Shown here: in pieces, positions 12,206 through 27,432 of the stretch
Layout of the letters: every line of letters starts with the position of its first letter
Numbering within the stretch: the stretch's first letter is position 1
Source of the DNA: Candidatus Moraniibacteriota bacterium
Lineage (GTDB): Bacteria > Patescibacteriota > Minisyncoccia > Moranbacterales > UBA1568
Assembly: GCA_049287005.1 (NCBI GenBank)
Contig: JBAQEZ010000003.1
Location: 265,745 to 329,744 of the forward strand
DNA: 64,000 bases
Reading direction: 5' to 3'
Made by a program: the position numbers and the translations under genes
Notes under the pieces: generated by a model
The model's database searches: none
Told to the model about the DNA's origin: nothing
What the model saw: only the letters and a program-made list of their open reading frames with translations

Positions 12206-12236
12206 AAAGATCGCTTGGCGATCTTTATCTTTCTCA
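12206..12236 (+). terminator. Terminator-like hairpin directly after rpsG, inside the str operon
   Basis: AAAGATCGC-ttgg-GCGATCTTT followed by ATCTTTCTC. Confidence 0.4.
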
Positions 12237-12268
12237 GAATCTTTGGTTTTCACCAAAAAAATAGTTTT

Positions 12269-14695: not shown

Positions 14696-14739
14696 GGCGG
14701 AAACTACGAATGAGGAGCCGGGAATTATGCATTATGGCA

Positions 14740-14764
14740 ACCAGCCGCTGTGGCTGGTTTTATT
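14740..14764 (+). terminator. Rho-independent terminator after fusA
   Basis: CCAGCC-gctgt-GGCTGG followed by TTTTATTG. Confidence 0.6.
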
Positions 14765-14840
14765 GTGTTTGTTAAAAAATACTTTAGATAAGCCAGGAGA
14801 GGTTGTGATTTTGCCCGGATTGTGCTATAAATGAAGCATG

Positions 14841-14868
14841 CTGAATCTGTATTCAGGTGTTTTTATTT
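14841..14868 (+). terminator. Second terminator-like hairpin
   Basis: CTGAAT-ctgt-ATTCAG followed by GTGTTTTTATTT. Confidence 0.4.
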
Positions 14869-15096
14869 CCTCTCTCGCATGTATGGTATTGGGCACTGGC
14901 ATTTTCAGGAAAACAAAATTGGCAACTCAGATAAGAAAACTCCGAGCGTAAGTTTGGGGTTTTTATGAATGGGAAAAAATAAAGGAAAACAAGATGGAAA
15001 CGAATGAGGAAAAGTTTTATCAAGAAGATTTTCTAAGGATCAAGAAGATGTATTTTCTAAAATATTTGCAGCATAAAGGCAAATTTTAGCGGGATT

Positions 15097-15741
15097 ATGA
15101 TACGAATAATCAGCGGGGGTAAAAAAATTGTTTGTTCATGCACGGAAGTCGGCATCGCGATGGTGCAAATCGCGACATACATTGCTTTTTCTAGAATTTT
15201 ACGTTATTTTTTTCGGGCTGATCGCAAAGTATCCCGGACGATAAGCCAGCTCAGAAGGGGGTCGCTGATCATTTCTAATCACCAATCGATCTTGGACCCC
15301 TTCATTATTTTGGCGCATTTGCCGACTCGCTCATTCCTCAAAGCGGTGCCTATTCGTTTCCCGGTGACTCACAGCTATTATAAATATCTGCGGTTTTTGG
15401 CTTTATTTGGAGCCTACGATATCGGTGCAGACAAAAGGGAACGGATGCTGGGATTGTTTTATACCCGAGATTTATTAAAATCAGGGGAAAGCGTCATGAT
15501 TTTTCCTGAAGGCAGGATTTGTGCGGCCGGAGAGATGCTGGATTTCCAAAATGGAATCAAATTTCTTACGGATGTCTCTGCTAATGTGGTTTTTGTCAAA
15601 ATGGAAGGATTTTATCAAAAAGACTGGCTGAAATTCCAAATGTTGCGCGGAGTTATTTTCAGCGAAGTCCGATATTTTAATGGAGAACAGGAAGACCCGG
15701 AAAATATCCGGGTGTTGATGAAAAAATTATCAGCTCATTGA
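15097..15741 (+). CDS. PlsC/LPLAT-family acyltransferase (lysophospholipid acyltransferase-like)
   Basis: NHQSILD is the H-x4-D acyltransferase motif and FPEGR is the second PlsC motif. The N-terminus is hydrophobic. Confidence 0.7.
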   Translation: MIRIISGGKKIVCSCTEVGIAMVQIATYIAFSRILRYFFRADRKVSRTISQLRRGSLIISNHQSILDPFIILAHLPTRSFLKAVPIRFPVTHSYYKYLRFLALFGAYDIGADKRERMLGLFYTRDLLKSGESVMIFPEGRICAAGEMLDFQNGIKFLTDVSANVVFVKMEGFYQKDWLKFQMLRGVIFSEVRYFNGEQEDPENIRVLMKKLSAH

Positions 15742-16400
15742 TAGCTAGTATGCACATAGCTATCGCTCAGTCAAAAAATATAAGTCCCAGCTATTTTTCC
15801 AAGTCTGAATTGGATGAATTGGAAAAATTGGCGGATTATAGAAAGGCAGACTGGTTGGCCAGTCGTTTGGCTGTCAAAAAAGCTCTTCGAAGATTTTTTT
15901 CGGAAAACCAAAAAAAAATTGTATTGAATGAGATACGTATAATCAGTCGGAAATCTTCCCGACCATCTTTCGAAGTCAAAGGAAAGAAATATCTAAACAT
16001 CGCTATCAGTTTGGCACATAGCAATGGCATCGGAGTAGGTGCTGTCAGCGAGACAGAATTAATCGGTGTGGATGTCGAAAATATCAGGAAATTTTCCGAA
16101 GAGTTTAAAGCAGGTTTCCTCACCGAAAAGGAGCTCAGGTGGTTCAAGAAAGTGAAAAAGGCTGAGAATGACAGAATAGCGACACTCTTCTGGTGTATCA
16201 AAGAAGCCTACCTGAAGGCGCTCGGCAGGGGGCTTAAAAAACACCCTCGGGAATTGGAAATACGGTCGAAAAATGGTAGTATGAGGTATATTTCTATTCA
16301 AGATAAAGGAATTCTGACCAATGCAACGGTTTCTTGGTCAATAAGCGATGGATATGCTGTGGCGGCCGTAATCATTCATAATGATGAGAGCGATGAATAA
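15738..16400 (+). CDS. 4'-phosphopantetheinyl transferase (Sfp/EntD-type)
   Basis: IGVDVENI matches the G-x-D-x-E motif and WCIKEAYLKALG matches the W/F-x3-KE-A-x2-KA motif. It overlaps the upstream stop. Possible starts are the TTG at 15738 or the ATG at 15750. Confidence 0.7.
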   Translation: MIASMHIAIAQSKNISPSYFSKSELDELEKLADYRKADWLASRLAVKKALRRFFSENQKKIVLNEIRIISRKSSRPSFEVKGKKYLNIAISLAHSNGIGVGAVSETELIGVDVENIRKFSEEFKAGFLTEKELRWFKKVKKAENDRIATLFWCIKEAYLKALGRGLKKHPRELEIRSKNGSMRYISIQDKGILTNATVSWSISDGYAVAAVIIHNDESDE

Positions 16401-16668
16401 GAAAATTTTTGAAATCGTGAAGGGCGTGATTTTCGAAACCTTGCAAGTCGATACCGAAGGAGTGAGTCTGGAAGACAAGATAGAGGATATTTGCCAGGAC
16501 TCCATCCAGATTTTCAGCCTGGTGATGAATTTTGAAAAAAAATTCAACTATAGGATCAATTACGGCGACTTGATAAAAATAGAAACGGTCGGCGATATCG
16601 TCGATCTGGTTGTTCAGTTGGAGGAAAAGGGGGAGATTTCATCTGAGGAGACCAATTTTAAAGGATAA
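16393..16668 (+). CDS. acyl/peptidyl carrier protein
   Basis: About 90 aa and acidic. DSIQIFSLVMNFEKKF fits the D-S-(L/I) phosphopantetheine attachment site at the start of helix 2. Its start overlaps the PPTase stop. Confidence 0.65.
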   Translation: MNKKIFEIVKGVIFETLQVDTEGVSLEDKIEDICQDSIQIFSLVMNFEKKFNYRINYGDLIKIETVGDIVDLVVQLEEKGEISSEETNFKG

Positions 16669-16672
16669 TTAA

Positions 16673-17440
16673 ATGGACATATTGAAAGTAATACTGGTTT
16701 TTTCTCTGATATGCATCCTATCGTTTGCGGTCTTTTTTGTGATTCCATCGGGATTTTTCAAAAACTTTTCGTTTAAGTGGCATTACTATGCCTACTCTTT
16801 CTCTGGGACTCCGGAGAAGATGGACGCGCTGAATAAGGAGAGTATCGATACTTCGCGAACAACCGGAAAGCCGATAACGATCGTGATTCATGGAGCGGAG
16901 ACAACATACTATAAGGATGTGTACGGCACCGTGGTTTGGTTTAAAGAAAATGGAGTAAACGTGGTTTCTTTCGATTATGATTTTAAAGCCGCGCCGGATG
17001 TATCCGCACGAAAATTAAGCGATTTTGTCGATGAAACATTGAAAGAAACCGGCACCAGAAAAGTCAATATCATGGGCACCTGCCTGGGGGGCATACTTGC
17101 AAAGTACTATGCGGAAAATTTCGGAGGGGCGGAGCATATCGATAAGTTGATTACGGTCATTTCTCCGGCCAGACCGATTCCCGAGACTGCGATCGCCTAC
17201 CAGTATGATACATTATTCTCTTTCGATCCGGCGTCATGGAATCAGGTTCTGGCAGGGCTGCAGGATAAGAACCCCGTCAAGGATCATATGTATTTCTACT
17301 GCAAGAATGACATTACGGTGCCGGCAAAGTATCAATTTTCGAGCGTGGGAAATTTTATCGGGTTAGAATGCGAGCACTCTTTCAATAACGTGAATCCGGA
17401 AGTGCTCGAGCCAGCATTGGATTTCATCAATACTCATTAA
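16673..17440 (+). CDS. lipase_2 (LipA)-like alpha/beta hydrolase with Cys in the nucleophile position
   Basis: An N-terminal TM/signal segment is followed by ITIVIHGAE...VNIMGTCLGG. That is the lipase class-2 layout, with G-T-C-L-G in place of G-x-S-x-G. Confidence 0.5.
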   Translation: MDILKVILVFSLICILSFAVFFVIPSGFFKNFSFKWHYYAYSFSGTPEKMDALNKESIDTSRTTGKPITIVIHGAETTYYKDVYGTVVWFKENGVNVVSFDYDFKAAPDVSARKLSDFVDETLKETGTRKVNIMGTCLGGILAKYYAENFGGAEHIDKLITVISPARPIPETAIAYQYDTLFSFDPASWNQVLAGLQDKNPVKDHMYFYCKNDITVPAKYQFSSVGNFIGLECEHSFNNVNPEVLEPALDFINTH

Positions 17441-17459
17441 AATATTATTACACATCAGA

Positions 17460-18200
17460 ATGGAAAGGATACTGGAAAAAGACGAATATACTTCTCCGGT
17501 CAGCGCCGAAGCCTATAGCGATATGGTCGACAAGTACAAATCGATGGTCCATGGCGGATTTGTCGAGCGCATATTGGAACGCGCCGACGATGGGTCAAAA
17601 ATTCTGGATGTCTGCACCGGCCCCGGACAGGTGCCGATCGAATTGGTTGAGAGGGGTGATTTCGAGATTACCGGCCTGGATGTTTCGCGAGAAATGCTGA
17701 ACGTAGCGGAAAGGAACGCTGCGGCCCGGAATGTGAAAGAGAAAATACGTTTTGTTCGGGGGAGTGTCGAACAGAATGATCTGCCAAAAAACTCTTTTGA
17801 TATCGTGGCTTGCTTCAACGCCATGCATCATTTCGAAGACCCTATTTTTCTGTGGCAGAAATTGAGAGCGCTCACGAAGCCGGGAGGAAGCATTTTTCTT
17901 GAGGATCTCGTCCGTCCGTCAGGGTGGCTTATCCCTCTCTATGTCATCGTATTCGGAGGGTTCGACCGGGAAGTTAGGAAACAATATCGCGATTCTTTAT
18001 TGGCGGCTTTATCGAGAAAAGAATGGATGAATCTTTTCGCTTCCGTGAAAAAGAACGACCCAGCGATCCTGAAGACGCATTTCTTGACGCATATGAGCAT
18101 CGTCATGACCGGTTCGAGCAATGCGGTCAAAAAAAATGTGGAAATAGGCTTGGGTGGAAATTTCTTTATCAGGGCCATCAGGGAGATTTTCTACAAATAA
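17460..18200 (+). CDS. class I SAM-dependent methyltransferase
   Basis: ILDVCTGPGQVPIEL is motif I, there is an acidic residue after beta-2, and FNAMHHFEDP is the motif IV region. Confidence 0.7.
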   Translation: MERILEKDEYTSPVSAEAYSDMVDKYKSMVHGGFVERILERADDGSKILDVCTGPGQVPIELVERGDFEITGLDVSREMLNVAERNAAARNVKEKIRFVRGSVEQNDLPKNSFDIVACFNAMHHFEDPIFLWQKLRALTKPGGSIFLEDLVRPSGWLIPLYVIVFGGFDREVRKQYRDSLLAALSRKEWMNLFASVKKNDPAILKTHFLTHMSIVMTGSSNAVKKNVEIGLGGNFFIRAIREIFYK

Positions 18201-18228
18201 CGGGTATTGACACGATTTTACCGGCACT
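18196..18228 (+). promoter_or_regulatory. Shared upstream motif, copy 1 (AAATAACGGGTATTGACACGATTTTACCGGCACT), in front of the exporter genes
   Basis: Near-identical to the reverse complement of 26868-26900, which lies upstream of the ThiF-like gene. It contains TTGACA. Confidence 0.45.
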
Positions 18229-18311
18229 GCGCTTGGGGCCGAAAGGTTGCTTTCGTTTCGCTCGCTTCGTTTGGTAATAAAAATCAGGTTTCAGTTAATG
18301 CTCGTGGTTTT

Positions 18312-19517
18312 ATGAATCATTATGTCAGTCGTTTGAAGATTCTGCTTTCTTTCGCTTTGCGGGATGTCTCCAAGAGCCGGATTATTTTGGTTTTTACCAT
18401 TATGAGCCTGAGTGCCGCGTTCACGGCTGTTTTTGTTTCGGCCGGAGTTTTGGATGGTTTTCAGGCCATGTTGGAGAGAGGATCGATCGATACGGGAGGG
18501 GAGCTGACTATAAAGGCGAAAACCGGGAATGGGGGCATCGAAAATATCGATGATGTGACACGGATTCTGGGTGCTGAAAAAAATATAGCAGGGTATAGTG
18601 TCAGAAGCTATGGCGGCCTGAAAGCAAAAATGGATGGCAAGTATAAGGGGCATGGGTATGCTGCTATCGGTGTCGATCCGATGCAGGAACGGGAGGCGAC
18701 GCAGATACCGGATCGGGTGATTGCCGGCCGTTACCTGCTTCCGGGAGATACGCGCAGCGTGGTGGTCGGTATAACTATGGCGGATTCGCTCAAAGGATTG
18801 CTCTATGACAATCAGGAGGTTCATGTCGGAGATAAGATCAGATTCATCGGACCGTCGAATAATAAGGGCAGAGACTATACTATAGTGGGAATTGCCAGTA
18901 CTAAATATTTTCATCCCGATTGGAGCACCTATTTTCCTAAAAAGGAAATCGAATGGCTGGACAATACGCGTGAGGATAGCGAAATCATCGTGAAACTGAA
19001 AGATCCCGCGCAAATGGATGAAACGAAAAAAAAGTTGCAGCGCTTGTTGCCGTATGCTGAAGTTTTCAATTGGAAGGAAAGAGAAGGCTATATTTTCAAT
19101 ATAGTGACCATGGTCAATTTCATTACCAGTACGATCAGCAATCTGCTTATCATTACCACGTTTGTCATCATGAGCGTGATCATTTTCATCAACGTGCACC
19201 AGCGTCGGCGGCAGATCGCCATCCTCAAGTCCATGGGCGCCAGCAGCCGGTTCGTCGTGGCCATCTATGTCGTACAGACTTTGACGTACTCGCTGTTCTC
19301 ATTCGCGCTGGCTTATCTGACATTTCTTCTGATGCATAGTTTTTCCCTGAACCATCCGATACCGATGCAGATCGGAGATTTTCATACGGTCGTAGTGGAT
19401 AAAAGCATGGCGCAGATGTTCGGGATACTCTTCCTTGCTTCTCTCGTGGGGAGTCTTTTTCCTTCGTATATGGCCGCACGAACCCGTATCGTCGATGTTT
19501 TGCGAAATACGGTTTAG
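18312..19517 (+). CDS. ABC transporter permease, FtsX/MacB-like
   Basis: An N-terminal TM helix, a large extracytoplasmic domain and a C-terminal FtsX 3-TM domain with ILKSMGASSRFVVAIYV. The ATG at 18312 is chosen by homology to the paralog start MSHYLSRL. Confidence 0.8.
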   Translation: MNHYVSRLKILLSFALRDVSKSRIILVFTIMSLSAAFTAVFVSAGVLDGFQAMLERGSIDTGGELTIKAKTGNGGIENIDDVTRILGAEKNIAGYSVRSYGGLKAKMDGKYKGHGYAAIGVDPMQEREATQIPDRVIAGRYLLPGDTRSVVVGITMADSLKGLLYDNQEVHVGDKIRFIGPSNNKGRDYTIVGIASTKYFHPDWSTYFPKKEIEWLDNTREDSEIIVKLKDPAQMDETKKKLQRLLPYAEVFNWKEREGYIFNIVTMVNFITSTISNLLIITTFVIMSVIIFINVHQRRRQIAILKSMGASSRFVVAIYVVQTLTYSLFSFALAYLTFLLMHSFSLNHPIPMQIGDFHTVVVDKSMAQMFGILFLASLVGSLFPSYMAARTRIVDVLRNTV

Positions 19518-19539
19518 AAAAAAATAACAGTTGGTTCTT

Positions 19540-20739
19540 ATGAGTCACTATCTCAGCCGGTTGGGCATCCTTCTCTCCTTCGTATTGCGGGATGTTTCCA
19601 AAAGCCGCTTCGTTCTCATTTTTACGACCATCAGTCTGAGTACCGCTTTTACGGCCGTTTTCCTTTCGGCCGGCATCTTGGAAGGTTTCCAAGTTATGCT
19701 GAAAAGCGGCGCTATAGATACGATGGGTGAAATCGTCATTTATCCGAAAGACGGAGAGACTCACATCGAAAATATCGAATCTATCAGTCAAGAAATCAAA
19801 GATACGGAAAACGTCGAATCATTCAGTGTCAGGGATGTGGGAGAAGCTATCATAGAATATGGCGATACGAAAATCGGTCCTTATGCCACCATGGGTATGG
19901 AGGTTGCGCGAGAAGCATCCGTTACCAAATTGCCCGAGGATATCACAGAGGGAAGATTTTTGAACAACAAAGATTCAAAAAACGTGGTTTTGGGCGCGAC
20001 ACTCGCGGACGCGTTGGTCGGCCTTCAATATGACGGCAGGAGGGTCCCCATCGGTGGCAAGGTCAAGATATCCTCCGGTACCGGTCAGCAGGGAGAATAC
20101 ACTGTTGTCGGTATCCTAGATGGTAAGACATTTGCTCCCAACTGGGTTGTCTATTTCAATAAAGATGAGTTGGACAAGTTCGAACCACGGTATAAAGACA
20201 ACCAGATCGTGGTGAAGCTGAAGGATCCAACGCAGCCCGCAATAACCAAGCAGATTTTGCGGCAAAAAAAATTAGATATGCAGGTTGTGACTTGGCAGGA
20301 TGAGGCCGGATTCATAGCCAATATAGTCTCTGCGACCAAATTCGTGACCGGTTCCATCAGCGGACTTTTGATAATTGCGGTGTTCGTCATCATGAGTGTG
20401 ATTATTTTCATCAATGTCTCCCAGCGTCGGCGGCAGATCGGTATTTTGAAATCCATGGGCGCGAGCAATCGGTTTATCGTGGCCATCTATGTTTTTGAGG
20501 CTTTCACCTACGCTACCATCTCCTTCGCTTTCGGACTCTTGTTTTTCATGCTCATTCATATCCATTCGACCAGCAACCCAATGCATACTCTCATAGGTGA
20601 TTTTCATACTGAATTCAACCCTCAAGATATCGTTCCTTCGCTTATCGTGCTGGTACTGGCTTCAATGGGTGGGAGTTTTTTCCCGGCCCTTTCGGCGGCA
20701 AGAACGCGCATTGCTGATGTCGTTCGTAGCGGTGTATAA
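19540..20739 (+). CDS. ABC transporter permease, FtsX/MacB-like (paralog)
   Basis: Same architecture as the upstream permease, with ILKSMGASNRFIVAIYV. Confidence 0.8.
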   Translation: MSHYLSRLGILLSFVLRDVSKSRFVLIFTTISLSTAFTAVFLSAGILEGFQVMLKSGAIDTMGEIVIYPKDGETHIENIESISQEIKDTENVESFSVRDVGEAIIEYGDTKIGPYATMGMEVAREASVTKLPEDITEGRFLNNKDSKNVVLGATLADALVGLQYDGRRVPIGGKVKISSGTGQQGEYTVVGILDGKTFAPNWVVYFNKDELDKFEPRYKDNQIVVKLKDPTQPAITKQILRQKKLDMQVVTWQDEAGFIANIVSATKFVTGSISGLLIIAVFVIMSVIIFINVSQRRRQIGILKSMGASNRFIVAIYVFEAFTYATISFAFGLLFFMLIHIHSTSNPMHTLIGDFHTEFNPQDIVPSLIVLVLASMGGSFFPALSAARTRIADVVRSGV

Positions 20740-20753
20740 TCATAATTAAGCAT

Positions 20754-21467
20754 ATGGAAATTCTTGCCAGTTTGAAAGATGTTCACAAAGAATATCGGAT
20801 GAGCAAAGTGCTGACCATCCCGGCGCTTAATGGTGTCACTCTGGATATCTTCAAAGGCGAGTTCCTGGCGATTACCGGACATTCCGGCTCCGGAAAGAGC
20901 ACGATGCTGAATATTCTGGGGCTTCTGGACGAACCGACACGCGGCGAGATGTATTTCGCGGGACACGAAGTCCACAATTTTACGGAAAAGCAGAGAGTCG
21001 ATCTGCGTTTGAATACGATGAGTTTTGTGTTTCAGTTTTTCAATCTGATTGACAATTATACGGCGCTGGAAAATATAAAATTCCAGCTGTTCCTGCAGGG
21101 CTGTGGCGGCAGGGAGGCGAATCGTCGATCGCAAGAAATTATTGATTTTTTGGGGCTCAAGGAACGTGCTTCCTTTTTCCCGCACGAGCTTTCCGGCGGC
21201 GAACAGCAGCGAGTGGCTATCGGGCGGGCGCTCGCCAAGGACTCCCTGATCATTATGGCTGATGAACCGACGGCGCATCTGGATTCCGCGAACGGGCAGG
21301 CAACTATCCAGTTATTGCACGATATCAACAAGAAATTCAATCGGACAGTGGTTCTGGTGACGCACGAAGAAGAGGAGGCGCGTCATGCTGATCGCAACGT
21401 GATGATGAGTGACGGAAAAATCTTGGAAATCAAGATACACCAAAAGATTGAAATAAAGCCTGAGTAG
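20754..21467 (+). CDS. ABC transporter ATP-binding protein (MacB/LolD-type)
   Basis: GHSGSGKST is Walker A, LSGGEQQRVAIGRAL is the signature motif, and IIMADEPT is Walker B. Confidence 0.9.
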   Translation: MEILASLKDVHKEYRMSKVLTIPALNGVTLDIFKGEFLAITGHSGSGKSTMLNILGLLDEPTRGEMYFAGHEVHNFTEKQRVDLRLNTMSFVFQFFNLIDNYTALENIKFQLFLQGCGGREANRRSQEIIDFLGLKERASFFPHELSGGEQQRVAIGRALAKDSLIIMADEPTAHLDSANGQATIQLLHDINKKFNRTVVLVTHEEEEARHADRNVMMSDGKILEIKIHQKIEIKPE

Positions 21468-21484
21468 ATGCTATAATTGGAAGT

Positions 21485-23038
21485 ATGCAAGGCAAAAAAA
21501 TAATTCTTACCATTCTGGTACTCGCGTTTTTGGGAGGCGCGGGACTTTTTGTATTTTTGAAATTTACGACAACCGAAAACGCAAAAAATATTTCTCCGGA
21601 AAATGGTAACGGATTTGTTGTCCAGAGTGGTTCTGCCGACCCTTCTGTGGAAGTGGATGACGCAGCACTTGTTCCGAAGGAAGACATGCACCTGGCGTTT
21701 GAGATGGGCGGAAAAATCCAAAAAGTGCTGGTAACGGAAGGACAAAGCGTGAACGAGGGAGATGCCCTGGTACAACTGGATACGACACAGCTGGCTATCG
21801 TCAAACGGCAGGCAGAGGCCGGAGTGAAGCAGGCACGGGCCGGCTTGGATAGATTGATCAATGGACTAACGGTGGCAGATCTCAAAGTCTTGCAAGCTGG
21901 TAAGAAGTCCGCTGATGAGTCGGCCGATGCTTTGCATGGAGGCGTCTTGGACGCCTTGCAGGGTTCTTTCACAGCGGCGGATGACGCAATGCGCGGCAAA
22001 ACGAATGCGCTTTTTACTGATCCGGATGGCGCGGATCCACAATTGAATATCCCGGTTTCTGACAGCAGCCTCGAGTTGGCTATCGAATCGTCTCGCCTCG
22101 AATTGAATACGGATCTGGAGTCTTTCAAAAATCGTGTCAATGGCCTAGGTTCGGGTAGTGATCCGGATAAAGAAACATCTCATGCCAAAGATTTTCTCAA
22201 TGAAGTGGCTAGTTATCTGACGAATGTAGCCAAGGCAGTGGATATACTGACGACTGCAGACGGTCTTACTCAAGACGAAATCGATGCCTTGAATGTGGCG
22301 GTTTCTACTGGTCGGGGAGAAGTGGATACAGCCAAAGCCGCCCTGGCCAAGGGATTGGCAAAGTTCAGCTTAGCGAATGGGGCATTTTCAGTAGCCACGA
22401 AGGATTATAAATCGAAAACGGTCGGACCGCGGCCGGAAGATATCGCGGTTGCGACCGCGCAAGTAGATGTGGCACGCGACCAGCTGAGCCTGGTAAATGA
22501 ACAGATAGCGAAAACTATATTAATTGCACCACATGCCGGAATGGTGAGTAAGATATGGTTCAAGGAAGGAGAAATTGATCCAGCTGGCCAGCCGGTCATC
22601 TCTTTTCGTAGTTCAGAAATGAAGATCCAGGCTGACGTGCCGGAAGAGGATATTTTGAAAGTTGCTATTGGTTCAGCTGCACGCGTAAAATTCAAAGCAT
22701 TGGTGCAGACAGTTTTTTTCGGAAAAGTCGACGCTATCGAAGCTCATGAAATCAACAAAGATGGGGATGTTTATTATCGCGTAGATATCGGGTCGTCGGA
22801 CTTTAACCCGCCTTTGCGTTCAGGTATGACCGCAGACGTGTTCATTGATTCGGCAGAGCAAGATAGTGCCATCAAGATTCCCTCAAGCTATGTCAGCTGG
22901 CGCGCCGGCCGTAGTTATGTTACGGTTGTAAATGCCGGTAAACGGCAAGAGGTCGAGGTCGAAACCGGAGCGACTGACGGAGACTCCACTGAGATCAGCA
23001 GCGGACTACAGGAAGGTCAGCAGCTCCTTTCGCCCTAA
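21485..23038 (+). CDS. HlyD-family periplasmic adaptor (membrane fusion protein)
   Basis: An N-terminal TM helix; the biotin/lipoyl-like hairpin GGKIQKVLVTEGQSVNEGDALVQLDTT; a long helical segment; a C-terminal beta-barrel. Confidence 0.75.
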   Translation: MQGKKIILTILVLAFLGGAGLFVFLKFTTTENAKNISPENGNGFVVQSGSADPSVEVDDAALVPKEDMHLAFEMGGKIQKVLVTEGQSVNEGDALVQLDTTQLAIVKRQAEAGVKQARAGLDRLINGLTVADLKVLQAGKKSADESADALHGGVLDALQGSFTAADDAMRGKTNALFTDPDGADPQLNIPVSDSSLELAIESSRLELNTDLESFKNRVNGLGSGSDPDKETSHAKDFLNEVASYLTNVAKAVDILTTADGLTQDEIDALNVAVSTGRGEVDTAKAALAKGLAKFSLANGAFSVATKDYKSKTVGPRPEDIAVATAQVDVARDQLSLVNEQIAKTILIAPHAGMVSKIWFKEGEIDPAGQPVISFRSSEMKIQADVPEEDILKVAIGSAARVKFKALVQTVFFGKVDAIEAHEINKDGDVYYRVDIGSSDFNPPLRSGMTADVFIDSAEQDSAIKIPSSYVSWRAGRSYVTVVNAGKRQEVEVETGATDGDSTEISSGLQEGQQLLSP

Positions 23039-23112
23039 GAGACTTTTGAGCAGACACTGAGAACAGTAGATTATTGAAGGAGCTGTCTTTTAAATTATCT
23101 GAATCTTATCGT

Positions 23113-24201
23113 ATGTTTCATTTTTTATACGTCCATATTTTCAGAAGAATAGTTTTTTTGCTTGATCCTGAAAAAGTGCATGATGGCATAGTGATGTTTG
23201 GAAGGAATTTGGGCAAATATAGTCTCACAAGGAAGATGACCAGAAGCCTATTGAGTTATCAGAACCAGGCTCTTTCGCAAACGGTAAGAGGAATACATTT
23301 CTCTAATCCGGTCGGGCTTTCAGGTGGCTTCGACAAGAATGCTGAGCTGACTGATATTATTCCGGAGGTTGGTTTTGGCTTTATGGAAATCGGTTCGGTC
23401 ACTGGAGAAAAATGTGATGGCAATGCAAAGCCGCGGTTGTGGCGACTCAAAAAATCCAAAAGTATCCTGGTCTATTATGGTTTGAACAATGATGGTGCCG
23501 AAGCTATTGCTCAAAGGTTGCGGGGAAAAAAGTTCAGGATTCCCGTCGGTGCCAATATCGCTAAGACGAATAATCAGAATACGGTAGGGAAAGAAGCCGG
23601 CGCAGCCGATTATTTGAAAGCTTATAAAGCGATGCAGGACATAGCTGATTATTTTACGATCAATATCAGCTGTCCGAATGCCTATGGCGGCTGCCCGTTT
23701 ACGGACAAAGAGTATCTGGATCATTTATTGTCGAGACTTGCAGAAGTTCCCAAGACAAAGCCGAGCTTTATCAAGCTCTCGCCCGATCTTTCGCATGAAG
23801 AAATCGACGGTATCATCGAGGTGGCCAGAAAACACGATATCGATGGGTTCGTTTGTTCGAATCTGACCAAGAGCCGCAACAATCCGAAGATCGTAGAAAA
23901 AGATTTTTCTGAATGTGGAGGGATGAGTGGAAAAGTAGTCATAGATCTTTCCAATGATCTCGTCGAGTATATTTATCGGAAAACAGGGAAAGAGTTCGTG
24001 CTCATCGGCCTAGGCGGTATTTTTTCCGCCGAGGATGCGTATAAGAAAATCCGTCTGGGCGCAACCTTGGTGGAACTGATAACGGGCATGATTTTTGAAG
24101 GCCCTCAGGTGATCGGTGATATCAATCAGGGGCTGGTAAAATTGTTAAAAAAAGATGGCTTCAAGAATATTTCCGAGGCAATTGGTGCCGATATCAGATA
24201 A
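23113..24201 (+). CDS. pyrD: dihydroorotate dehydrogenase-like flavoenzyme (class-2-type N-terminus)
   Basis: LDPEKVHDGIV is the class-2 N-terminal region. GFGFMEIGSVT, GLNNDG and NISCPN (Cys where class 2 has the catalytic Ser) also fit. GGIFSAEDAYKKIRLGATLVEL closes the FMN site. Confidence 0.75.
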   Translation: MFHFLYVHIFRRIVFLLDPEKVHDGIVMFGRNLGKYSLTRKMTRSLLSYQNQALSQTVRGIHFSNPVGLSGGFDKNAELTDIIPEVGFGFMEIGSVTGEKCDGNAKPRLWRLKKSKSILVYYGLNNDGAEAIAQRLRGKKFRIPVGANIAKTNNQNTVGKEAGAADYLKAYKAMQDIADYFTINISCPNAYGGCPFTDKEYLDHLLSRLAEVPKTKPSFIKLSPDLSHEEIDGIIEVARKHDIDGFVCSNLTKSRNNPKIVEKDFSECGGMSGKVVIDLSNDLVEYIYRKTGKEFVLIGLGGIFSAEDAYKKIRLGATLVELITGMIFEGPQVIGDINQGLVKLLKKDGFKNISEAIGADIR

Positions 24202-24211
24202 GATACGTCTT

Positions 24212-24868
24212 ATGCAGATTGATTTTTGTCGGGCTCGCTGTGATGCTGATCAACAGGGTGCGTTCGATCTTGTTTCAGAGGAATATAAGAAGGACGGATA
24301 TATCGATGTTGACGCCCGTCCGGACATCCCTGTCTATAATTTTTTGCTGACCTCGGCAACTTTTATCGCTAAGGCTGATAAGACAATAATCGGAACGGTG
24401 ACAATCGTTGGTGATGGGGAAAAAGGCTTGCCCATGGAAAATATCTATGAGGAAGAAATCGGGGAGCTGCGTTGGTCTGGAAAAAAAATGGCGGAAATCT
24501 CGCAATTAGCAATCAAGCGCGGAACGGCTGAAAATCCGGATATGCATCAAAGAAAAATCCAGACGAGCATTCCGCTTGCCCTCTTCAGGGTCGTTTATTT
24601 TTTTGCGAAAAGCCAGGGTATCGGGAATTTCTGTATCGCCATCAATCCGAAGCATGAAACTTTTTATAAATTACTCGGCTTCGAAGACATCGGTGGATTG
24701 AAAAGCTATTCTTTTGTCAACGGTGCTCCAGCTTTGGCCAGGATGTTGGACATCACGCAGGATCCCAAAGTACTGGCAGAAAAAAGCTTTATTTTTGATG
24801 AGATAATAAAAAATCCGCTGACGGCAGGGGATTTTGAACAAGCAATCATTTTTTCGCAAGAAATCTAG
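24212..24868 (+). CDS. putative GNAT-fold N-acyltransferase (FeeM/OlsB/autoinducer-synthase-like)
   Basis: About 218 aa. The call rests on overall residue pattern and size only; it is not motif-proven. Confidence 0.35.
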   Translation: MQIDFCRARCDADQQGAFDLVSEEYKKDGYIDVDARPDIPVYNFLLTSATFIAKADKTIIGTVTIVGDGEKGLPMENIYEEEIGELRWSGKKMAEISQLAIKRGTAENPDMHQRKIQTSIPLALFRVVYFFAKSQGIGNFCIAINPKHETFYKLLGFEDIGGLKSYSFVNGAPALARMLDITQDPKVLAEKSFIFDEIIKNPLTAGDFEQAIIFSQEI

Positions 24869-25938
24869 ACATTCTTCATAATTTTCTCGATTGCTTTTCT
24901 GCCGGAAACGGCGGATGGGCCTTTGGCATAGCCCAAACGGAAAAGAGCGACTGGAGTTTCGTTTTTCAGGTTTGGAAACGTTGCGTGAAAAAAATCAGCA
25001 ATCTCATTTTGTATCCGTTGATACTTCGGAGAGAGACCTCCTCGGGATAAGCGCTGGTTGAGTATCAGACACAGCGTTCCGAAAAGCGGTTGCATAAAGA
25101 TATTTTTCGTCGTCAGATATAGCCAGATGGCTTGCATTGCTCGTCCTCCTCCGAGGTAGGTGTGTGGATGGTGATCCTTGGAGTATGTTATGAAGGCGAG
25201 CGCTCCGGATCTTTTCACGTTTTGACTAGTATGTATCACTGAACCGACCCCCATGACTTTCCAAAGAAGCTTGATCTTTTCTGCCAGATAGATGGTCGGT
25301 TTGAAAAAATGCTTTTTCAGCCCGAGTTCTAGGCTTTCTAAGGGCAAGCCGACGACGGCCTGTTCATTTTTTTCAAAGCTGACCATGCGTAGCAGGTTAT
25401 CGCGTAAAGCCTTATCTCCCCAAAGTATGTAGTCATGAATACCTATGATTCGAGAAAATTGTTTGATGATTTGTGGATCTTCAATCCAACACAGATGGGC
25501 GCCTTTCGCTTCGGCCAAGGCTTGGAGCTTATTTTTGATATCTCTGGCTATTTTTTTCGTCGAGTAAGCGCGACGGTTCGTTTTTCGCTTGGCGAGAGAA
25601 TCAAGCAGATCTGATGAATAAGGATCGTGGGTTTTTTTGAGTTCGATTTTTGCTATAGGATGAGCACTTTCAAAAAAATTGATTTCTGGCGTGTATCCCA
25701 AGTGATGCGCCTGTACGTGCATGTTTTCGATGACCGCTCCTAAGCTGACATAATCAGCGAAAAAATCGATATTGTACAAATGATTGGCAGCCGTATGTTC
25801 CACGTCATGATGCACATAAATCGCATTTTCTTCAACGGTAAAAAACCACGGCTGGGAGTTATCCGCAGACGGTGAAAGTCGACCGGCCTCGATTATTTTC
25901 TGAATATTTTCTTTCATTTTCAAAATCTCAGTCATCAC
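24865..25938 (-). CDS. tandem nitroreductase-fold flavin oxidoreductase (SagB/ThcOx-like dehydrogenase candidate)
   Basis: The N-terminal half AGRLSPSADNSQPWFF is a nitroreductase FMN motif. The second half begins RRAYSTKKI, typical of a second nitroreductase-like subdomain. Confidence 0.55.
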   Translation of the reverse strand: MMTEILKMKENIQKIIEAGRLSPSADNSQPWFFTVEENAIYVHHDVEHTAANHLYNIDFFADYVSLGAVIENMHVQAHHLGYTPEINFFESAHPIAKIELKKTHDPYSSDLLDSLAKRKTNRRAYSTKKIARDIKNKLQALAEAKGAHLCWIEDPQIIKQFSRIIGIHDYILWGDKALRDNLLRMVSFEKNEQAVVGLPLESLELGLKKHFFKPTIYLAEKIKLLWKVMGVGSVIHTSQNVKRSGALAFITYSKDHHPHTYLGGGRAMQAIWLYLTTKNIFMQPLFGTLCLILNQRLSRGGLSPKYQRIQNEIADFFHATFPNLKNETPVALFRLGYAKGPSAVSGRKAIEKIMKNV

Positions 25939-25965
25939 ATAAGGCGGGGCACCGTGAATAGTCGT

Positions 25966-26838
25966 TTAGAGACGGCCGCGAGATTTCAGGACTGAAGTCA
26001 TAATGATTCGTTTCAGGCGCTGGATCGGATTCTTGTTACCGAAAGGCACCCAGACCCTTTTGAGTTTTTTCAGGTATGGATCAAAGTGCAAGGATGCCGG
26101 TGCCGAGCGTACTTTTTCTCCGAAGATAATTTTCAGGGCTTCGCAGGAAACAAGGTTGGCGCATAAGAGGGTTCCCGTGACCAACGAGGGAGCCTTTCTT
26201 TCTTTCCAATTGACAGCATCCGGATTGAAATAAGATCTTTGAAGCAAGGTGGGAGTCAGTCCGAGACCGAAGCGTACGAGCATCTCTTCTTTTGTCTGGC
26301 TATCTTCAAGATCGAAATATTCATCGAAGCGCATTCCCTGTGGGTTGAAGACGAGCATGGAAGAACCGAAGCCGACGGGTCCGGCCGTGAGGGCGAAGAG
26401 GCCGCGCTTCTGTGACTCTCGAAACAGCATCCGCCGGGTCGCGATACTGAAGAAGTCTATTCCATCCAAAACAATATCGGTATTATCCAGAAACTCCGCG
26501 ATATTCTCATCGTGGATGCCTTTGGGAAAGGCGGTCACTTTTGCGTAGGGATTGATCGCGAGGATCATGTTTTTTATCACCTCGGTTTTCGGTTTTCCGG
26601 CAGTCTCTATCGTTGATCCGGCCTGGCGATTCATATTGCCCACTTCGAAAACATCGAGATCGGCAATATGAAAATTTCCGAATCCCAGGCGAGCGAAAGT
26701 GGTCGCATAGATCCCGCCTGCGCCTCCCAGCCCGGCTATGGCGACTGTACTCTCTCGGAGCTTCTCTTGCTGTTCGTCCGTCAGAAGGCCCTTATTCCGT
26801 GAAAAGGCTTCCTGATAAAAGCGTAATGATTCGTCCAT
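25966..26838 (-). CDS. ThiF/MoeB/HesA-family E1-like adenylyltransferase
   Basis: IAGLGGAGGIYATTFARLGFGNFHIADLDVFEVGNMNRQ is a Rossmann-type nucleotide loop plus the E1 NRQ motif. The start is placed at MDESL (26838). The ORF-track start at 26892 would run through the shared upstream motif. Confidence 0.75.
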   Translation of the reverse strand: MDESLRFYQEAFSRNKGLLTDEQQEKLRESTVAIAGLGGAGGIYATTFARLGFGNFHIADLDVFEVGNMNRQAGSTIETAGKPKTEVIKNMILAINPYAKVTAFPKGIHDENIAEFLDNTDIVLDGIDFFSIATRRMLFRESQKRGLFALTAGPVGFGSSMLVFNPQGMRFDEYFDLEDSQTKEEMLVRFGLGLTPTLLQRSYFNPDAVNWKERKAPSLVTGTLLCANLVSCEALKIIFGEKVRSAPASLHFDPYLKKLKRVWVPFGNKNPIQRLKRIIMTSVLKSRGRL

Positions 26839-26867
26839 AGCGATAAGGTTAATAGCTTTATTACCAA

Positions 26868-26900
26868 ACGAGTGCCGGTAAAATCGGGTCAATACCCGTT
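26868..26900 (-). promoter_or_regulatory. Shared upstream motif, copy 2 (reverse complement AAATAACGGGTATTGACCCGATTTTACCGGCACT)
   Basis: It matches 18196-18228 except at one position (A/C, right after TTGAC). It lies upstream of the ThiF-like gene. Confidence 0.45.
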
Positions 26901-27248
26901 ATTTTAGAATCTTGCGACTATCTGGTAGTGCGGAAAAGTATAGATAGACCGTCTTAAAAAATCATGGTATCGCAAAATCATACCAAATGCAATTTCAATG
27001 TATTGCCAAACCATTCGAATGATAAATAACGCAACTGTTTTTCAGGAAAATGCTCTTTATAGTGCTATTCCCTATGTCAAAGGTATGAGGGAAATCACTC
27101 TATATATTATACAAAATATACGTGAGAAGCGCCATCTCAGAACTTCAAGTGAGGGTTACCAATCGGCCTAAGTCTATTGTTATATTTTCTGACTTCAATT
27201 AACAATTCAGGAGACTAAAGACTAGGATGATACAGCGGGCCGAGAACC

Positions 27249-27277
27249 TTGACAGATATTTCGTCAGCTGTTATTAT
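27249..27277 (+). promoter_or_regulatory. sigma70-type promoter upstream of tuf (TTGACA-17-TATTAT)
   Basis: TTGACA at 27249-27254, a 17-nt spacer, TATTAT at 27272-27277. Confidence 0.4.
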
Positions 27278-27432
27278 TCTCAGTGATGCTTTTACCCAAG
27301 CTTTTTTCATTTTTGTTTGGAAAAACTTTGGAGCGAAAAGAACATTTTTGAGTAAAAAATAATTCGTAATTATTAGGAGAGCACGGATACTTTACGGAAC
27401 GTAAAGGCACGCGCAATCATACGATAAAAGTT

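Follow-up and report, generated by a model that had tools for sequence, protein, structure and literature searches.

A 12.6 kb island in a Candidatus Moraniibacteriota MAG (CPR/Patescibacteria) encodes an acyl carrier protein (ACP), a FeeM-family N-acyl amino acid synthase (NAS), a ThiF-like enzyme, an NTR-superfamily flavin oxidase (FDO) and an ABC exporter, and probably directs biosynthesis of an exported lipid of the acyl-oxazolone or N-acyl-dehydro-amino-acid class, derived from an N-acyl amino acid and adapted to a CPR bacterium. An earlier note on this DNA had described an ACP-centred aminolipid module with counterparts of OlsA, OlsB and OlsG. Its ACP-centred character, FeeM-family NAS and adjacent lipid-type exporter are retained here and an exported, ACP-dependent N-acyl amino acid lipid is supported, but the correspondence to the three Ols enzymes is not.

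Layout and boundaries of the island

Within the window (the entire 64,000-nucleotide stretch analyzed) the island sits between fusA, with its stop at 14695, and tuf, and has a GC content of 45.3% versus 50.4%. A terminator-like hairpin after fusA marks its upstream border. Plus-strand genes are densely packed from 15097 to 24868, the PPTase start overlapping the AT stop by 4 nt, and every gene listed in the earlier note was found there with nearly all domain calls upheld, so that the reported colocalization is real. Directly beyond 24868 are two minus-strand genes convergent with NAS and encoding FDO and the ThiF-like enzyme, the FDO and NAS stops overlapping by 4 nt as they also do in locus L002. 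Both genes lie outside the end coordinate proposed earlier, and the island boundary should be shifted to about 26904 to take them in. A 34-nt motif matches the window twice, where 0.03 matches would be expected, and its two copies are 97% complementary to each other; as the exporter-PyrD-NAS operon shares this motif with the ThiF-FDO operon, the two may be co-regulated. Among the window ORFs scanned there was no ketosynthase or acyl-ACP synthetase, in agreement with the earlier note, and no other pyr gene or second PlsC; the window contained no FAS gene and the cluster no adenylate-forming ligase.

Features of the island, with window coordinates, strand and principal evidence
Feature	Coordinates	Strand	Evidence
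Terminator-like hairpin	14739..14759	+	9-bp stem, 5 GC pairs, T-rich tail; after fusA
Divergent LPLAT/PlsC-like acyltransferase (AT)	15097..15741	+	PF01553 E=1.9e-11
Sfp/HetI-type 4'-phosphopantetheinyl transferase (PPTase)	15738..16400	+	PF01648 E=3e-20
Dedicated acyl carrier protein (ACP)	16381..16668	+	PF00550 and several NCBIfam ACP models; attachment Ser in DSI
N-terminally membrane-anchored minimal lipase-fold hydrolase, Cys-Asp-His triad	16673..17440	+	AF2/Foldseek and conserved residues
Class I SAM methyltransferase (UbiG/UbiE-like)	17460..18200	+	Methyltransf_25/11 E~1e-20
34-nt motif copy 1	18195..18228	+	MT/MacB1 intergenic region
MacB/LolC-type ABC permease 1	18312..19517	+	MacB_PCD and FtsX domains; best NCBIfam match lolCE
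MacB/LolE-type ABC permease 2, tandem paralog	19531..20739	+	FtsX domain; lolCE and devC matches
ABC ATPase (LolD/DevA/MacB-type)	20754..21467	+	PF00005 E=2e-30; best match LolD model, 207 bits
Membrane-fusion/periplasmic adaptor protein (MFP)	21485..23038	+	TIGR01730 136 bits, above cutoff; DevB, HlyD matches
Class-2 DHODH (PyrD) paralog, Cys for catalytic Ser	23074..24201	+	NF003652, TIGR01036
FeeM-family N-acyl amino acid synthase (NAS; OxzA/TyzA-like step)	24212..24868	+	PF21926 E=3.5e-30
NTR-superfamily flavin oxidase FDO (TyzC-like desaturase)	24865..25938	-	NCBIfam Rv1355c (TrzS) family E=3e-49
ThiF-like adenylating cyclase (TyzB-like)	25966..26838	-	NF006077/PRK08223 348 bits (cutoff 266)
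34-nt motif copy 2	26871..26904	-	directly upstream of ThiF

The NAS, ThiF-like and FDO enzymes

The NAS gene product, 218 aa in the NCBI annotation, matched FeeM (PDB 2G0B) with E=6e-25 and gave no match to PF13444, the OlsB family, at E<=0.01. What had been put forward as a candidate FeeM/OlsB-like N-acyltransferase, with the proviso that a GNAT, FeeM or OlsB fold be present, is therefore a true FeeM-family NAS, and on this point the earlier reading survives. For FDO the Rv1355c (TrzS) family was the best match, spanning model positions 371-719, followed by PRK14851 (E=1.5e-44) and the Acg family (E=1e-33). The ThiF-like protein additionally matched the ThiF portions of PRK14851, PRK14852 and Rv1355c; its AF2 model has a pLDDT of 95.5, and the adenylation residues (GxGxxGG, R/N, NxxRQ, K and DxxD) are invariant. 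In PRK14852, an NCBIfam model of a single 989-aa protein, segments 39-209, 301-585 and 615-797 correspond to the window NAS, ThiF and FDO respectively, and the PRK14851 and Rv1355c models are ThiF-FDO fusions. Among 81 loci anchored on the ThiF subfamily a ThiF-FDO fusion was observed in 14 and a separate nearby FDO in 40, and the window ThiF is 42-56% identical to the ThiFs in this set that are fused to or adjoin an FDO. ThiF-adjacent NAS proteins from other phyla matched PF21926 in every case tested, and a Massilia polaris locus with NAS, ThiF and FDO has a ThiF assigned to the NCBIfam equivalog of the window ThiF.

Judged by HMMs and gene neighborhoods, the predicted NAS, ThiF-like and FDO proteins are the acyl-oxazolone/N-acyl-dehydro-amino-acid module that has been characterized experimentally. 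OxzA and OxzB give rise to tyrazolones and phenazolones (bioRxiv 10.1101/2020.06.11.147165), whilst TyzA N-acylates Tyr or Phe, the ThiF protein TyzB cyclizes the product using ATP and the FDO TyzC desaturates it (PMC10404671). Mycobacterium tuberculosis has two systems of this module, TyzACB (PMC10404671) and TrzAS, in which TrzS is Rv1355c (PMC12856293). The tyz arrangement, with tyzBC adjoining tyzA on the opposite strand and mmpL9 at the cluster flank (PMC10404671), is identical to the window in the layout of the three core genes. By homology to these characterized enzymes, NAS would N-acylate an amino acid, probably an aromatic one by analogy with every characterized case; the ThiF-like enzyme would adenylate this N-acyl amino acid at its carboxylate, allowing the amide oxygen to close an oxazol-5-one ring; and FDO would desaturate the C-alpha/C-beta bond. 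There is good reason to expect that the three enzymes produce an N-acyl oxazolone or dehydro-amino acid. The O2 dependence of TyzC-type FDOs is a point against simple transfer of the TyzC step to this organism. Clusters combining NAS, MT, ThiF and NTR genes have been tied to stieleriacines and kyonggic acids, but stieleriacine producers make open-chain dehydro-tyrosines rather than oxazolones (PMC12479983) and the product may differ between lineages.

Acyl carrier, accessory enzymes and exporter

The PlsC-type assignment of AT made earlier is borne out by its HQSILD (HX4D) and FPEGR motifs, of which H62-x4-D67 and F136-P-E138 are invariant across five orthologs. Its best NCBIfam matches were Aas acyl-ACP:phospholipid acyltransferase domains. 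The earlier note had considered that AT might be an ordinary housekeeping PlsC; its score of 30.5 bits on TIGR00530, where the cutoff is 103, and its membership in a small divergent clade, with 13 representatives out of 1.84e9 at E<=1e-30, indicate that it is not canonical. AT adjoins PPTase-ACP in all CPR loci compared and is proposed to act as an ACP-linked acyl transferase. The PPTase scored above the TIGR00556 cutoff, and its length of 220 aa together with a match to the HetI model (E=1e-14) identifies it as Sfp-type, as previously described. Likewise, the DSI site reported for the carrier protein is conserved in orthologs (DDSIRLF, PDSIALF and KDSIALF).

On the evidence of FeeM and of gene linkage it is rather likely that this ACP, converted to its holo form by the PPTase, would be the acyl donor of NAS. 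Against this, characterized NAS enzymes of the pathway used acyl-CoA in vitro (PMC10404671, PMC12856293). FAS and housekeeping ACP machinery are reportedly missing from CPR genomes, and CPR membranes have been described as lysolipid-rich and built from foreign lipids (PMC7242380). Scavenged host lipids, already suggested as the acyl source, are plausible, and recurrent lipase genes in other CPR loci strengthen this proposal. The ACP may be loaded from pre-existing, scavenged lipids, the candidates being AT as a lipid-ACP transacylase and the membrane-anchored Cys-lipase, alone or with AT, through a thioester relay. Transfer from an oxo-ester to a thioester is thermodynamically uphill, which weighs against such loading, and we regard a loading role for AT, the lipase or both as doubtful. 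AT could alternatively be a tailoring O-acyltransferase. No step activating free fatty acid was identified for the cluster.

The alpha/beta hydrolase gave only weak Pfam matches, to Abhydrolase_1 and Palm_thioest, PF01674 not being among them. As its AF2 model (pLDDT 86) is nearest to minimal lipases, with Streptomyces lipase MAS1, MAJ1 and B. subtilis LipA as top Foldseek matches, the earlier description "Lipase_2-like" is correct by fold, although the nucleophile is Cys (GTCLG) and not Ser. C137, D213 and H235 are invariant in eight homologs and in L005 and L007. A set of 5.8e9 proteins yielded only eight clusters of it, and relatives in L089 carry Ser. The SAM methyltransferase, also noted previously, had CpaM, UbiG and UbiE as its best NCBIfam matches, all under cutoff. 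It probably tailors the aromatic ring, by analogy with methylated stieleriacines, and is accessory since it is missing from L005 and L007.

The flavoenzyme after the exporter genes is PyrD-like, as noted, scoring 353 bits on NF003652 (cutoff 267) and 300 bits on TIGR01036 (cutoff 200); the gene caller places its start at 23113. Relative to rat DHODH it has NISCPN for NVSSPN and SNLT for TNTT, both substitutions being invariant in four in-cluster orthologs, and its gene is immediately 5' of NAS in the window, L002, L004 and L007, where genomic surroundings differ. It may be a second, possibly O2-independent, pathway dehydrogenase or a genuine hitch-hiking PyrD; scores past the equivalog cutoffs for quinone-dependent DHODH count against the former, and a pathway role is possible but the less favored option.

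The exporter genes recognized earlier (18312-23038) encode two permeases, an ATPase and an adaptor. The true start of permease 1 was set from its paralog and orthologs, and DNA repeats D1/D2 of permease 2 are 71-73% identical to permease 1. The ATPase also matched bacteriocin and darobactin exporters. The exporter most resembles LolCDE/DevCA, ABC systems that handle lipids, and with its adaptor it would pull the lipid from the membrane and export it.

This gene set also bears on an ornithine-lipid-like route, in which an acyloxyacyl aminolipid would arise by FeeM/OlsB-like N-acylation, after which a 3-hydroxyacyl chain would be O-acylated in a PlsC/OlsA-like step and the molecule N-methylated in an OlsG-like one. 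In its favor, the cluster encodes a PlsC-family AT and a SAM methyltransferase as well as an N-acyltransferase and an ACP, and the OlsBA and GlsBA systems pair a NAS with a PlsC-type acyltransferase. However, the NAS belongs to PF21926 and not to the OlsB family, AT represents a small divergent clade, the methyltransferase is accessory and UbiG/UbiE-like, and 3-hydroxyacyl-ACP would have to come from FAS, which is absent from the window and reportedly from CPR (PMC7242380). The route moreover leaves out ThiF and FDO, which are co-conserved and fused elsewhere. Because NAS, ThiF and FDO form an oxazolone module, the ornithine-lipid analogy is a weak fit and such a route is improbable; an N-acyl oxazolone or N-acyl dehydro-amino acid is the best-fitting product class, not an acyloxyacyl aminolipid.

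Recurrence of the gene set in other loci

At least eight further loci contain these components, with varying gene order and genomic position, so their grouping is not due to chance. The extended set is kept in shuffled order in L005, L006, L007, L008, L086, L087 and L088. CPR loci with the module include named Kaiserbacteria, Minisyncoccota and Saccharibacteria as well as Moranbacteria-type loci, and in the CPR loci other than the window the divergent PlsC-like AT, Sfp-type PPTase, ACP, membrane-anchored lipases and LolCDE/MacB-type exporter accompany it. In Proteobacteria, Desulfobacterota and planctomycetes the loci are limited to ThiF, FDO and, if detected, NAS; none of those examined carries AT, PPTase, ACP or a lipase. 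The lipases are Cys-LipA-like in the window, L005 and L007, and two TM-anchored GDSL lipases are present in L086-L088. The ACP gene is immediately 5' of NAS in L087, L088 and L006. NAS and FDO are present in L002, where ThiF, AT and ACP were not seen within 10 kb, and BLAST found no FDO in L006 or L008, both of which keep ThiF; given these variants, the product is not necessarily identical across lineages.

This distribution argues against AT, PPTase, ACP and lipase serving general phospholipid salvage or remodeling, by Aas-like re-acylation of lysolipids with scavenged fatty acids, next to NAS/ThiF/FDO and exporter genes that are neighbors by chance. The Aas-like matches of AT, the membrane anchoring of the lipases and the reported lysolipid-rich, foreign-derived CPR membranes (PMC7242380) are in its favor, but seven independent loci of rearranged gene order have AT-PPTase-ACP beside NAS and ThiF, L087 and L088 each have a single apparent ThiF-AT-PPT-ACP-NAS operon, and an essential system would not be expected in a lower-GC island between fusA and tuf or at changing genomic sites. 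Salvage as the main function therefore appears unlikely. Less likely still is that the ThiF-like enzyme, instead of or besides cyclizing, is the missing acyl activator, adenylating lipase-released fatty acid for attack by the ACP phosphopantetheine thiol in E1-like chemistry. ThiF enzymes do adenylate carboxylates and then hand them to thiols (PMC12596934), gene tables of L005 and L086-L088 show no AMP-binding ligase within 10 kb, ThiF directly adjoins AT-PPT-ACP in L007, L087 and L088, and it persists in L006 and L008 where FDO was not detected. The window ThiF nevertheless shares its equivalog and 42-56% identity with the ThiFs of FDO fusions and of proteobacterial NAS-ThiF-FDO clusters that have no ACP, and the characterized relatives of these ThiFs are cyclases. 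A RiPP-type system, with the E1-like and nitroreductase-family proteins modifying a ribosomal peptide as in azole-forming TOMM machinery for export by the adjoining ABC system, is very improbable despite the bacteriocin and darobactin exporter matches of the ATPase, as no YcaO or precursor-like ORF was seen, FDO matches the Rv1355c/Acg group and no bacteriocin-associated model, and FeeM NAS and ACP are integral and co-conserved.

The preferred reading is an exported lipid of the N-acyl oxazolone or dehydro-amino acid class, and it suggests that these tiny, lipid-dependent CPR bacteria use fatty acids taken from elsewhere to make a lipid for export.

A low-GC insert in the str operon

The fusA and tuf genes of the str operon are separated in the window by a 12.6-kb insert. 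At 45.3%, compared with 50.4% elsewhere in the window, its GC content is the lowest among all 12.6-kb stretches in the 64 kb. Pfam and NCBIfam profile searches together with reading of ORFs recovered from the insert, almost item by item, the genes that an earlier note had assembled into an acyl carrier protein (ACP)-centred, ornithine-lipid-like module beside an exporter (see table). Two minus-strand genes had been left out of that module, one encoding a nitroreductase (NTR)-superfamily flavin oxidase (FDO) and the other a ThiF-like adenylating enzyme (ThiF). Outside the insert the window encodes streamlined housekeeping functions (ribosomal operons, glycolysis, cell division and murein genes), and no fatty acid synthesis (FAS) genes, other pyr genes or second PlsC were found among the scanned window ORFs. 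Pfam gave no family at E<=1e-4 for three ORFs with housekeeping neighbours (375, 126 and 287 aa). Between rpsG and fusA in the str operon lies a DUF1653 gene (120 aa, PF07866). A generic sigma-70 promoter scan of the window returned 25 sites against 21.5 expected, which is not above chance, and the fusA terminator and tuf promoter are the sole elements taken from the promoter and terminator scan here.

Positions of features in the window and in related loci (prefix L)
Feature	Position	Strand	Remarks
DUF1653 gene	12185-12547
fusA	12590-14695
Terminator-like hairpin	14739-14759		after fusA
Insert	14835-27432		12.6 kb
PlsC-family acyltransferase (AT)	15097-15741	+	PF01553; HQSILD and FPEGR motifs
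Sfp/HetI-type 4'-phosphopantetheinyl transferase (PPTase)	15738-16400	+
ACP	16381-16668	+	DSI site
Alpha/beta hydrolase	16673-17440	+
Class I SAM methyltransferase	17460-18200	+
34-nt sequence, copy 1	18195-18228	+
Two MacB/FtsX permeases, ABC ATPase, membrane-fusion protein (MFP)	18312-23038	+
Permease repeat D1	18310-18494/19538-19722
Permease repeat D2	19062-19306/20284-20528
Class-2 dihydroorotate dehydrogenase (DHODH; PyrD)	23074-24201	+
FeeM-family N-acyl amino acid synthase (NAS)	24212-24868	+
FDO	24865-25938	-	nitroreductase superfamily; convergent with NAS
ThiF	25966-26838	-	convergent with plus-strand genes
34-nt sequence, copy 2	26871-26904	-	97% reverse complement of copy 1
tuf promoter	27249-27277		tuf's own; near-consensus
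tuf	27433-28623
ORF, 375 aa	46625-47752
ORF, 126 aa	53652-54032
ORF, 287 aa	63130-63993	-
PyrD ortholog	L002:8874-9995
PyrD ortholog	L004:3124-4242
PyrD ortholog	L007:18213-19346
GDSL lipase pair	L086:10922-12515		exporter operon end
GDSL lipase pair	L087:3456-5145		exporter operon end
GDSL lipase pair	L088:3524-5189		exporter operon end

NAS and FDO converge so closely that they share 4 nt at their stop codons (24865-24868), as in the related locus L002 (10666-10669), and no space is left for terminators between the two genes. In L002 the cluster adjoins the rplA/rplK/nusG/secE genes, and on P0005, the contig of another relative, it adjoins the genes for RNase HII and ribosomal protein L32. 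The low GC content, the insertion into the str operon and the different sites occupied in relatives together suggest that the island is mobile and moves between genomic sites.

A 34-nt sequence, AAATAACGGGTATTGACNCGATTTTACCGGCACT, is present twice, and both copies are followed by CGTTTGGTAATAAA. The first copy lies upstream of the exporter-PyrD-NAS operon and the second upstream of the ThiF-FDO operon, these operons facing inward. Two matches to this motif in the 64-kb window compare with 0.03 expected by chance, and the motif was not found in the loci of other species. The pair may represent a shared operator/promoter; alternatively, it may form terminal inverted repeat-like ends of an 8.7-kb unit. 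Two ORF starts that read MTRFYRH, 18207 on the plus and 26892 on the minus strand, were rejected as artefacts of the repeated motif, the true starts being 18312 and 26838.

Core enzymes and known N-acyl amino acid pathways

The NAS, ThiF and hydrolase show 100% identity to proteins encoded on a 766,823-bp contig of a Candidatus Moraniibacteriota MAG, which places the window in the CPR/Patescibacteria. The window NAS matched PF21926 (E=3.5e-30), the only Pfam family found at E<=0.01, and its closest solved structure is FeeM (PDB 2G0B, E=6e-25); PF13444, the OlsB family, was not matched. All tested NAS proteins encoded beside ThiF in Betaproteobacteria, Deltaproteobacteria, Planctomycetes and CPR also belong to PF21926. 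The window protein shares only 27-32% identity with the NAS proteins detected in Proteobacteria. The ThiF protein scored 348 bits against the NF006077/PRK08223 equivalog (cutoff 266), matched the Rv1355c-family HMM (E=7e-21) and gave an AF2 model with a pLDDT of 95.5. Alignment showed that all adenylation residues are kept (GxGxxGG, R/N, NxxRQ, K and DxxD), with G36/G38/G41/G42, R14/N15, N68/R71/Q72, K84 and D125/D128 invariant. For FDO the best model was the Rv1355c/TrzS family, with E=3e-49 over the FDO half of that model, followed by PRK14851 (E=1.5e-44) and the Acg family (E=1.3e-33). PRK14851 and the Rv1355c-family model describe ThiF-nitroreductase fusions, and in PRK14852, a single 989-aa protein, NCBIfam segments 39-209, 301-585 and 615-797 match the window NAS, ThiF and FDO, respectively.

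One of the closest known counterparts is TyzACB of M. tuberculosis (Rv2336-Rv2338c), which makes N-acyl tyrazolones (Grigg et al. 2023; PMC10404671) and in which, as in the window, FeeM-fold NAS, ThiF-like ATP-dependent cyclase and NTR-superfamily flavin oxidase are encoded as individual proteins. The gene layout in the window is exactly that of tyz, with tyzBC adjacent to tyzA on the opposite strand (PMC10404671), and a lipid transporter gene lies near both, mmpL9 at tyz and a MacB/Lol-type system in the window. TyzA, however, uses acyl-CoA, the tyz locus lacks an ACP, PPTase, PlsC-like acyltransferase, lipase, DHODH paralog and methyltransferase, and its host is a free-living or pathogenic actinobacterium with full lipid synthesis. 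The same chemistry and domain families are found in OxzAB of Pseudoalteromonas rubra and other Proteobacteria, in which OxzA (a NAS) and OxzB (a ThiF-nitroreductase fusion) produce N-acyl tyrazolones and phenazolones, oxazol-5-one lipids (bioRxiv 10.1101/2020.06.11.147165), and in TrzAS (Rv1356c/Rv1355c), where Rv1355c is the tryptazolone synthetase TrzS (PMC12856293). In these systems the oxazolone synthetase is a ThiF-nitroreductase fusion, whereas in the window ThiF and FDO are separate genes and acyl supply and export are added.

Producers of stieleriacines, kyonggic acids and thalassotalic acids also carry NAS, ThiF and nitroreductase genes, and in two Stieleria stieleriacine producers a methyltransferase gene is located in the same region (PMC12479983); all four enzyme types are also present in the window. 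The window ThiF shares its NCBIfam equivalog with the ThiF of a NAS-ThiF-FDO locus in Massilia polaris (L041), a member of the genus of the kyonggic-acid producer. The products isolated from these producers are, however, open-chain N-acyl dehydrotyrosines rather than oxazolones, and their clusters lack an ACP, PPTase, AT and lipase.

A further parallel is the fee cluster from soil eDNA, whose FeeM is the nearest solved relative of the window NAS. Its products are derived from N-acyl-tyrosine by tailoring enzymes of other kinds; it contains an ACP and is not known to carry a ThiF/FDO pair. OlsB/OlsA and GlsB/GlsA, which make ornithine and glycine lipids from acyl-ACP, likewise combine an N-acyltransferase and an acyltransferase of the PlsC family. 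The earlier mapping of the module onto such Ols-type aminolipid enzymes did not survive the lack of PF13444 in the window NAS, while its proposal of an ACP-dependent N-acyl amino acid lipid with an exporter was retained. The ThiF/FDO pair would have no role in Ols or Gls synthesis, which in addition requires 3-hydroxyacyl-ACP. AT matches PF01553 with the HX4D and FPEG motifs, which would also suit an OlsA-type O-acyltransferase acting on a lyso-aminolipid, and belongs to a small divergent clade. A RiPP/TOMM system was dropped as there was no YcaO and no precursor ORF and FDO is of the Rv1355c/Acg type. The best label for the locus is a CPR-adapted acyl-oxazolone/N-acyl-dehydro-amino-acid gene cluster.

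Patterns derived from one NAS protein brought up no relatives in a scan of a genome collection. When species-representative genomes were surveyed with the ThiF alignment instead, at least 80 loci were recovered, a sample biased towards Proteobacteria. A ThiF-FDO fusion is encoded by 14 of the 81 ThiF loci analysed and a separate FDO lies nearby in 40, giving 54 of 81 ThiF-clade loci with FDO fused or near; window ThiF is 42-56% identical to the ThiF proteins of such loci. The ThiF subfamily gave 1305 matches at E<=1e-20, many of the best being from CPR. Three loci designated CPR-type by similarity only have the orders ThiF-AT-PPTase-ACP-hydrolase-MacB-MacB-ABC-MFP-PyrD-NAS with FDO on the other strand (L007), AT-PPTase-ACP-hydrolase-ThiF-MacB-ABC-MFP-NAS preceded by FDO on the other strand (L005) and AT-PPTase-NAS-ThiF (L008). 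The order in a saccharibacterial locus (L006) is AT-PPTase-ACP-NAS-ThiF-MFP-MacB-ABC. In loci from Kaiserbacteria (L087) and Minisyncoccota (L088) a GDSL-GDSL-MFP-ABC-MacB-FDO operon diverges from ThiF-AT-PPTase-ACP-NAS, and a Moranbacteria-type locus (L086) has the same gene set in another arrangement, with FDO and ThiF together and AT-PPTase-ACP apart. No AT, PPTase, ACP or lipase gene was present in any surveyed proteobacterial, Desulfobacterota or planctomycete locus, and the ACP-centred acyl-supply module and exporter are therefore a lineage-specific extension of a widespread core. Literature searches returned nothing relevant linking oxazolones or tyrazolones, NAS, the antiSMASH class 'acyl_amino_acids' or ACP/PPTase clusters with Patescibacteria.

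One further ThiF homolog, which carries the name 'Nanoarchaeota archaeon' at NCBI (L089; ENA ERZ27247124 k141_607590), has different neighbours: a pair of hydrolases homologous to that of the window but of the Ser type, together with a patatin phospholipase, a B12-radical SAM enzyme, an AMP-binding ligase and a VTT/DedA protein. NAS, FDO and ACP were not detectable in this locus, which for want of NAS and FDO was not counted as a member of the cluster type; an 82-aa ORF beside the ligase was rejected as an ACP as it lacks the phosphopantetheine-site motif. The locus may represent a further way of scavenging lipids in a DPANN-like genome.

Putative acyl-supply proteins, PyrD paralog and exporter

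The acyltransferase shows the H-x4-D and FPEGR motifs and PlsC-type family membership ascribed to it from the sequence. Its score against the PlsC model TIGR00530 was 30.5 bits compared with a cutoff of 102.95, arguing against a housekeeping PlsC, an identity that together with the lack of a FeeM/OlsB-type fold would have undercut the aminolipid proposal; AT is not a canonical PlsC. An exhaustive search among 1.84 billion proteins returned 13 representatives at E<=1e-30 and 817 at E<=1e-3, mostly of about 200 aa. The best HMM matches of AT were acyltransferase domains of Aas, the E. coli acyl-ACP:2-acyl-GPE (acyl-ACP:phospholipid) acyltransferase, but unlike Aas the window protein is stand-alone, of approximately 200 aa and without a fused acyl-ACP synthetase domain. 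Reversible lysophospholipid acyltransferases (LPLATs) such as LPCAT exist, and by analogy these and Aas would provide a precedent for acyl exchange between lipids and a thioester carrier. The PPTase (220 aa; PF01648 E=3e-20; TIGR00556 72.5 bits, cutoff 45) matched the HetI model over residues 66-193 (E=1.3e-14), and this HetI/Sfp likeness and its length, compared with 120 aa for AcpS, agree with the Sfp type proposed previously. The carrier protein has the DSI attachment site described earlier. In L006, L087 and L088 the gene for NAS comes immediately after that for the ACP. The gene tables of L005 and L086-L088 list no adenylate-forming ligase within 10 kb; only L089 has one.

The family of the hydrolase is very rare, comprising just 8 clusters in a set of 5.8 billion proteins; the protein carries an N-terminal TM helix. 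Its AF2 model (pLDDT 86) has a minimal lipase fold, the best Foldseek matches being Streptomyces MAS1 (5H6B, E=7e-9), MAJ1 and B. subtilis LipA (1I6W, TM 0.76 normalised to target). Its description as lipase_2-like thus holds for the fold and fails for the family and triad, as Pfam did not list PF01674 and the expected Ser-Asp-His triad (A/G-x-S-x-G) is replaced by an invariant Cys137-Asp213-His235, with the nucleophile Cys in G-x-C-L-G-G. More distant relatives beside ThiF in L089 keep Ser. In L086, L087 and L088 the Cys-lipase is replaced by a pair of TM-anchored GDSL lipases. By the positive-inside rule, the catalytic domains of these lipases and of the window hydrolase probably face the cytoplasm. 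L088 also encodes a CMAS-like methyltransferase, and in L086 a Methyltransf_2 O-methyltransferase gene lies nearby.

PyrD passes the DHODH equivalog cutoffs (NF003652, 352.9 bits, cutoff 267; TIGR01036, 299.9 bits, cutoff 200) and matches DHODH structures in the PDB with E=2e-61. Compared with the rat enzyme, NVSSPN is replaced by NISCPN, placing Cys at the class-2 catalytic Ser position as in class 1, and TNTT by SNLT, with Leu rather than Thr after the orotate-binding Asn. In DHODH structures the catalytic Ser lies in the N-x-S-S-P-N loop, and Thr/Ser follows the orotate-binding Asn. Both substitutions are invariant in four in-cluster orthologs. PyrD lies directly upstream of NAS in four loci with differing surroundings (the window, L002, L004 and L007) and is absent from L005, L006, L008 and L086-L088. 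In NCBIfam the exporter is closest to LolCDE and DevCA, systems whose substrates are lipids or lipidated molecules. In the window the genes for the two MacB-type permeases are tandem paralogs with 71-73% DNA identity over two repeats (D1 and D2), and L005, L086, L087 and L088 have a single permease.

Proposed pathway and its implications

By homology to characterised enzymes, NAS would form an N-acyl amino acid, the ThiF-like enzyme would adenylate its carboxylate and close the oxazolone ring, and FDO would introduce the 2,3-double bond; the order may vary, as in Tyz. The acyl donor would be the cluster ACP, converted to its holo form by the PPTase. We infer that this ACP could be charged from pre-existing lipids by AT and/or the Cys-lipase through a thioester relay, with AT catalysing an Aas/LPLAT-type reaction in the direction of the thiol. 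Precedents for such transfers are the reversal of LPLAT reactions and the Lnt route, in which an acyl group passes from phospholipid via a Cys-thioester to an amide. The methyltransferase may modify the aromatic ring, as in methylated stieleriacines, and the Lol/MacB-type pump would export the lipid. CPR bacteria have been reported to lack complete lipid synthesis (Probst et al., PMC7242380), and FAS and ACP-using enzymes are likewise reported to be missing from them. The most specific version of this scheme, which we regard as rather unlikely, is a widely conserved, self-contained CPR system in which a private ACP is charged from host membrane lipids by ATP-independent transacylation through the divergent LPLAT and/or the Cys-lipase, and an N-acyl oxazolone, possibly made with the Cys-type DHODH as an O2-independent desaturase, is exported as a signal or weapon towards the host. 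If true, the charging of an ACP from phospholipid would be new enzymology, as would lipid desaturation by a repurposed DHODH.

Acyl-oxazolones are a recent discovery, characterised in Proteobacteria and mycolic-acid-producing Actinomycetota (M. tuberculosis, M. smegmatis and R. jostii), with related clusters in Planctomycetota. New here is the conservation of the same core pathway in several CPR lineages, accompanied by a private ACP, PPTase, lipases and a Lol/MacB-type exporter. Annotations such as 'MoeB/ThiF', 'nitroreductase', 'PlsC' and 'PyrD' in these genomes are likely to be misleading. The cluster raises two enzymological questions: the means by which an ACP is acylated in the absence of FAS and adenylate-forming ligases, and the job performed by a Ser-to-Cys class-2 DHODH paralog. 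It suggests that organisms thought to be almost without secondary metabolism and without ACP-dependent chemistry make a specialised lipid for export, and offers a concrete, testable handle on CPR-host interaction and on the processing of scavenged lipids by CPR bacteria.
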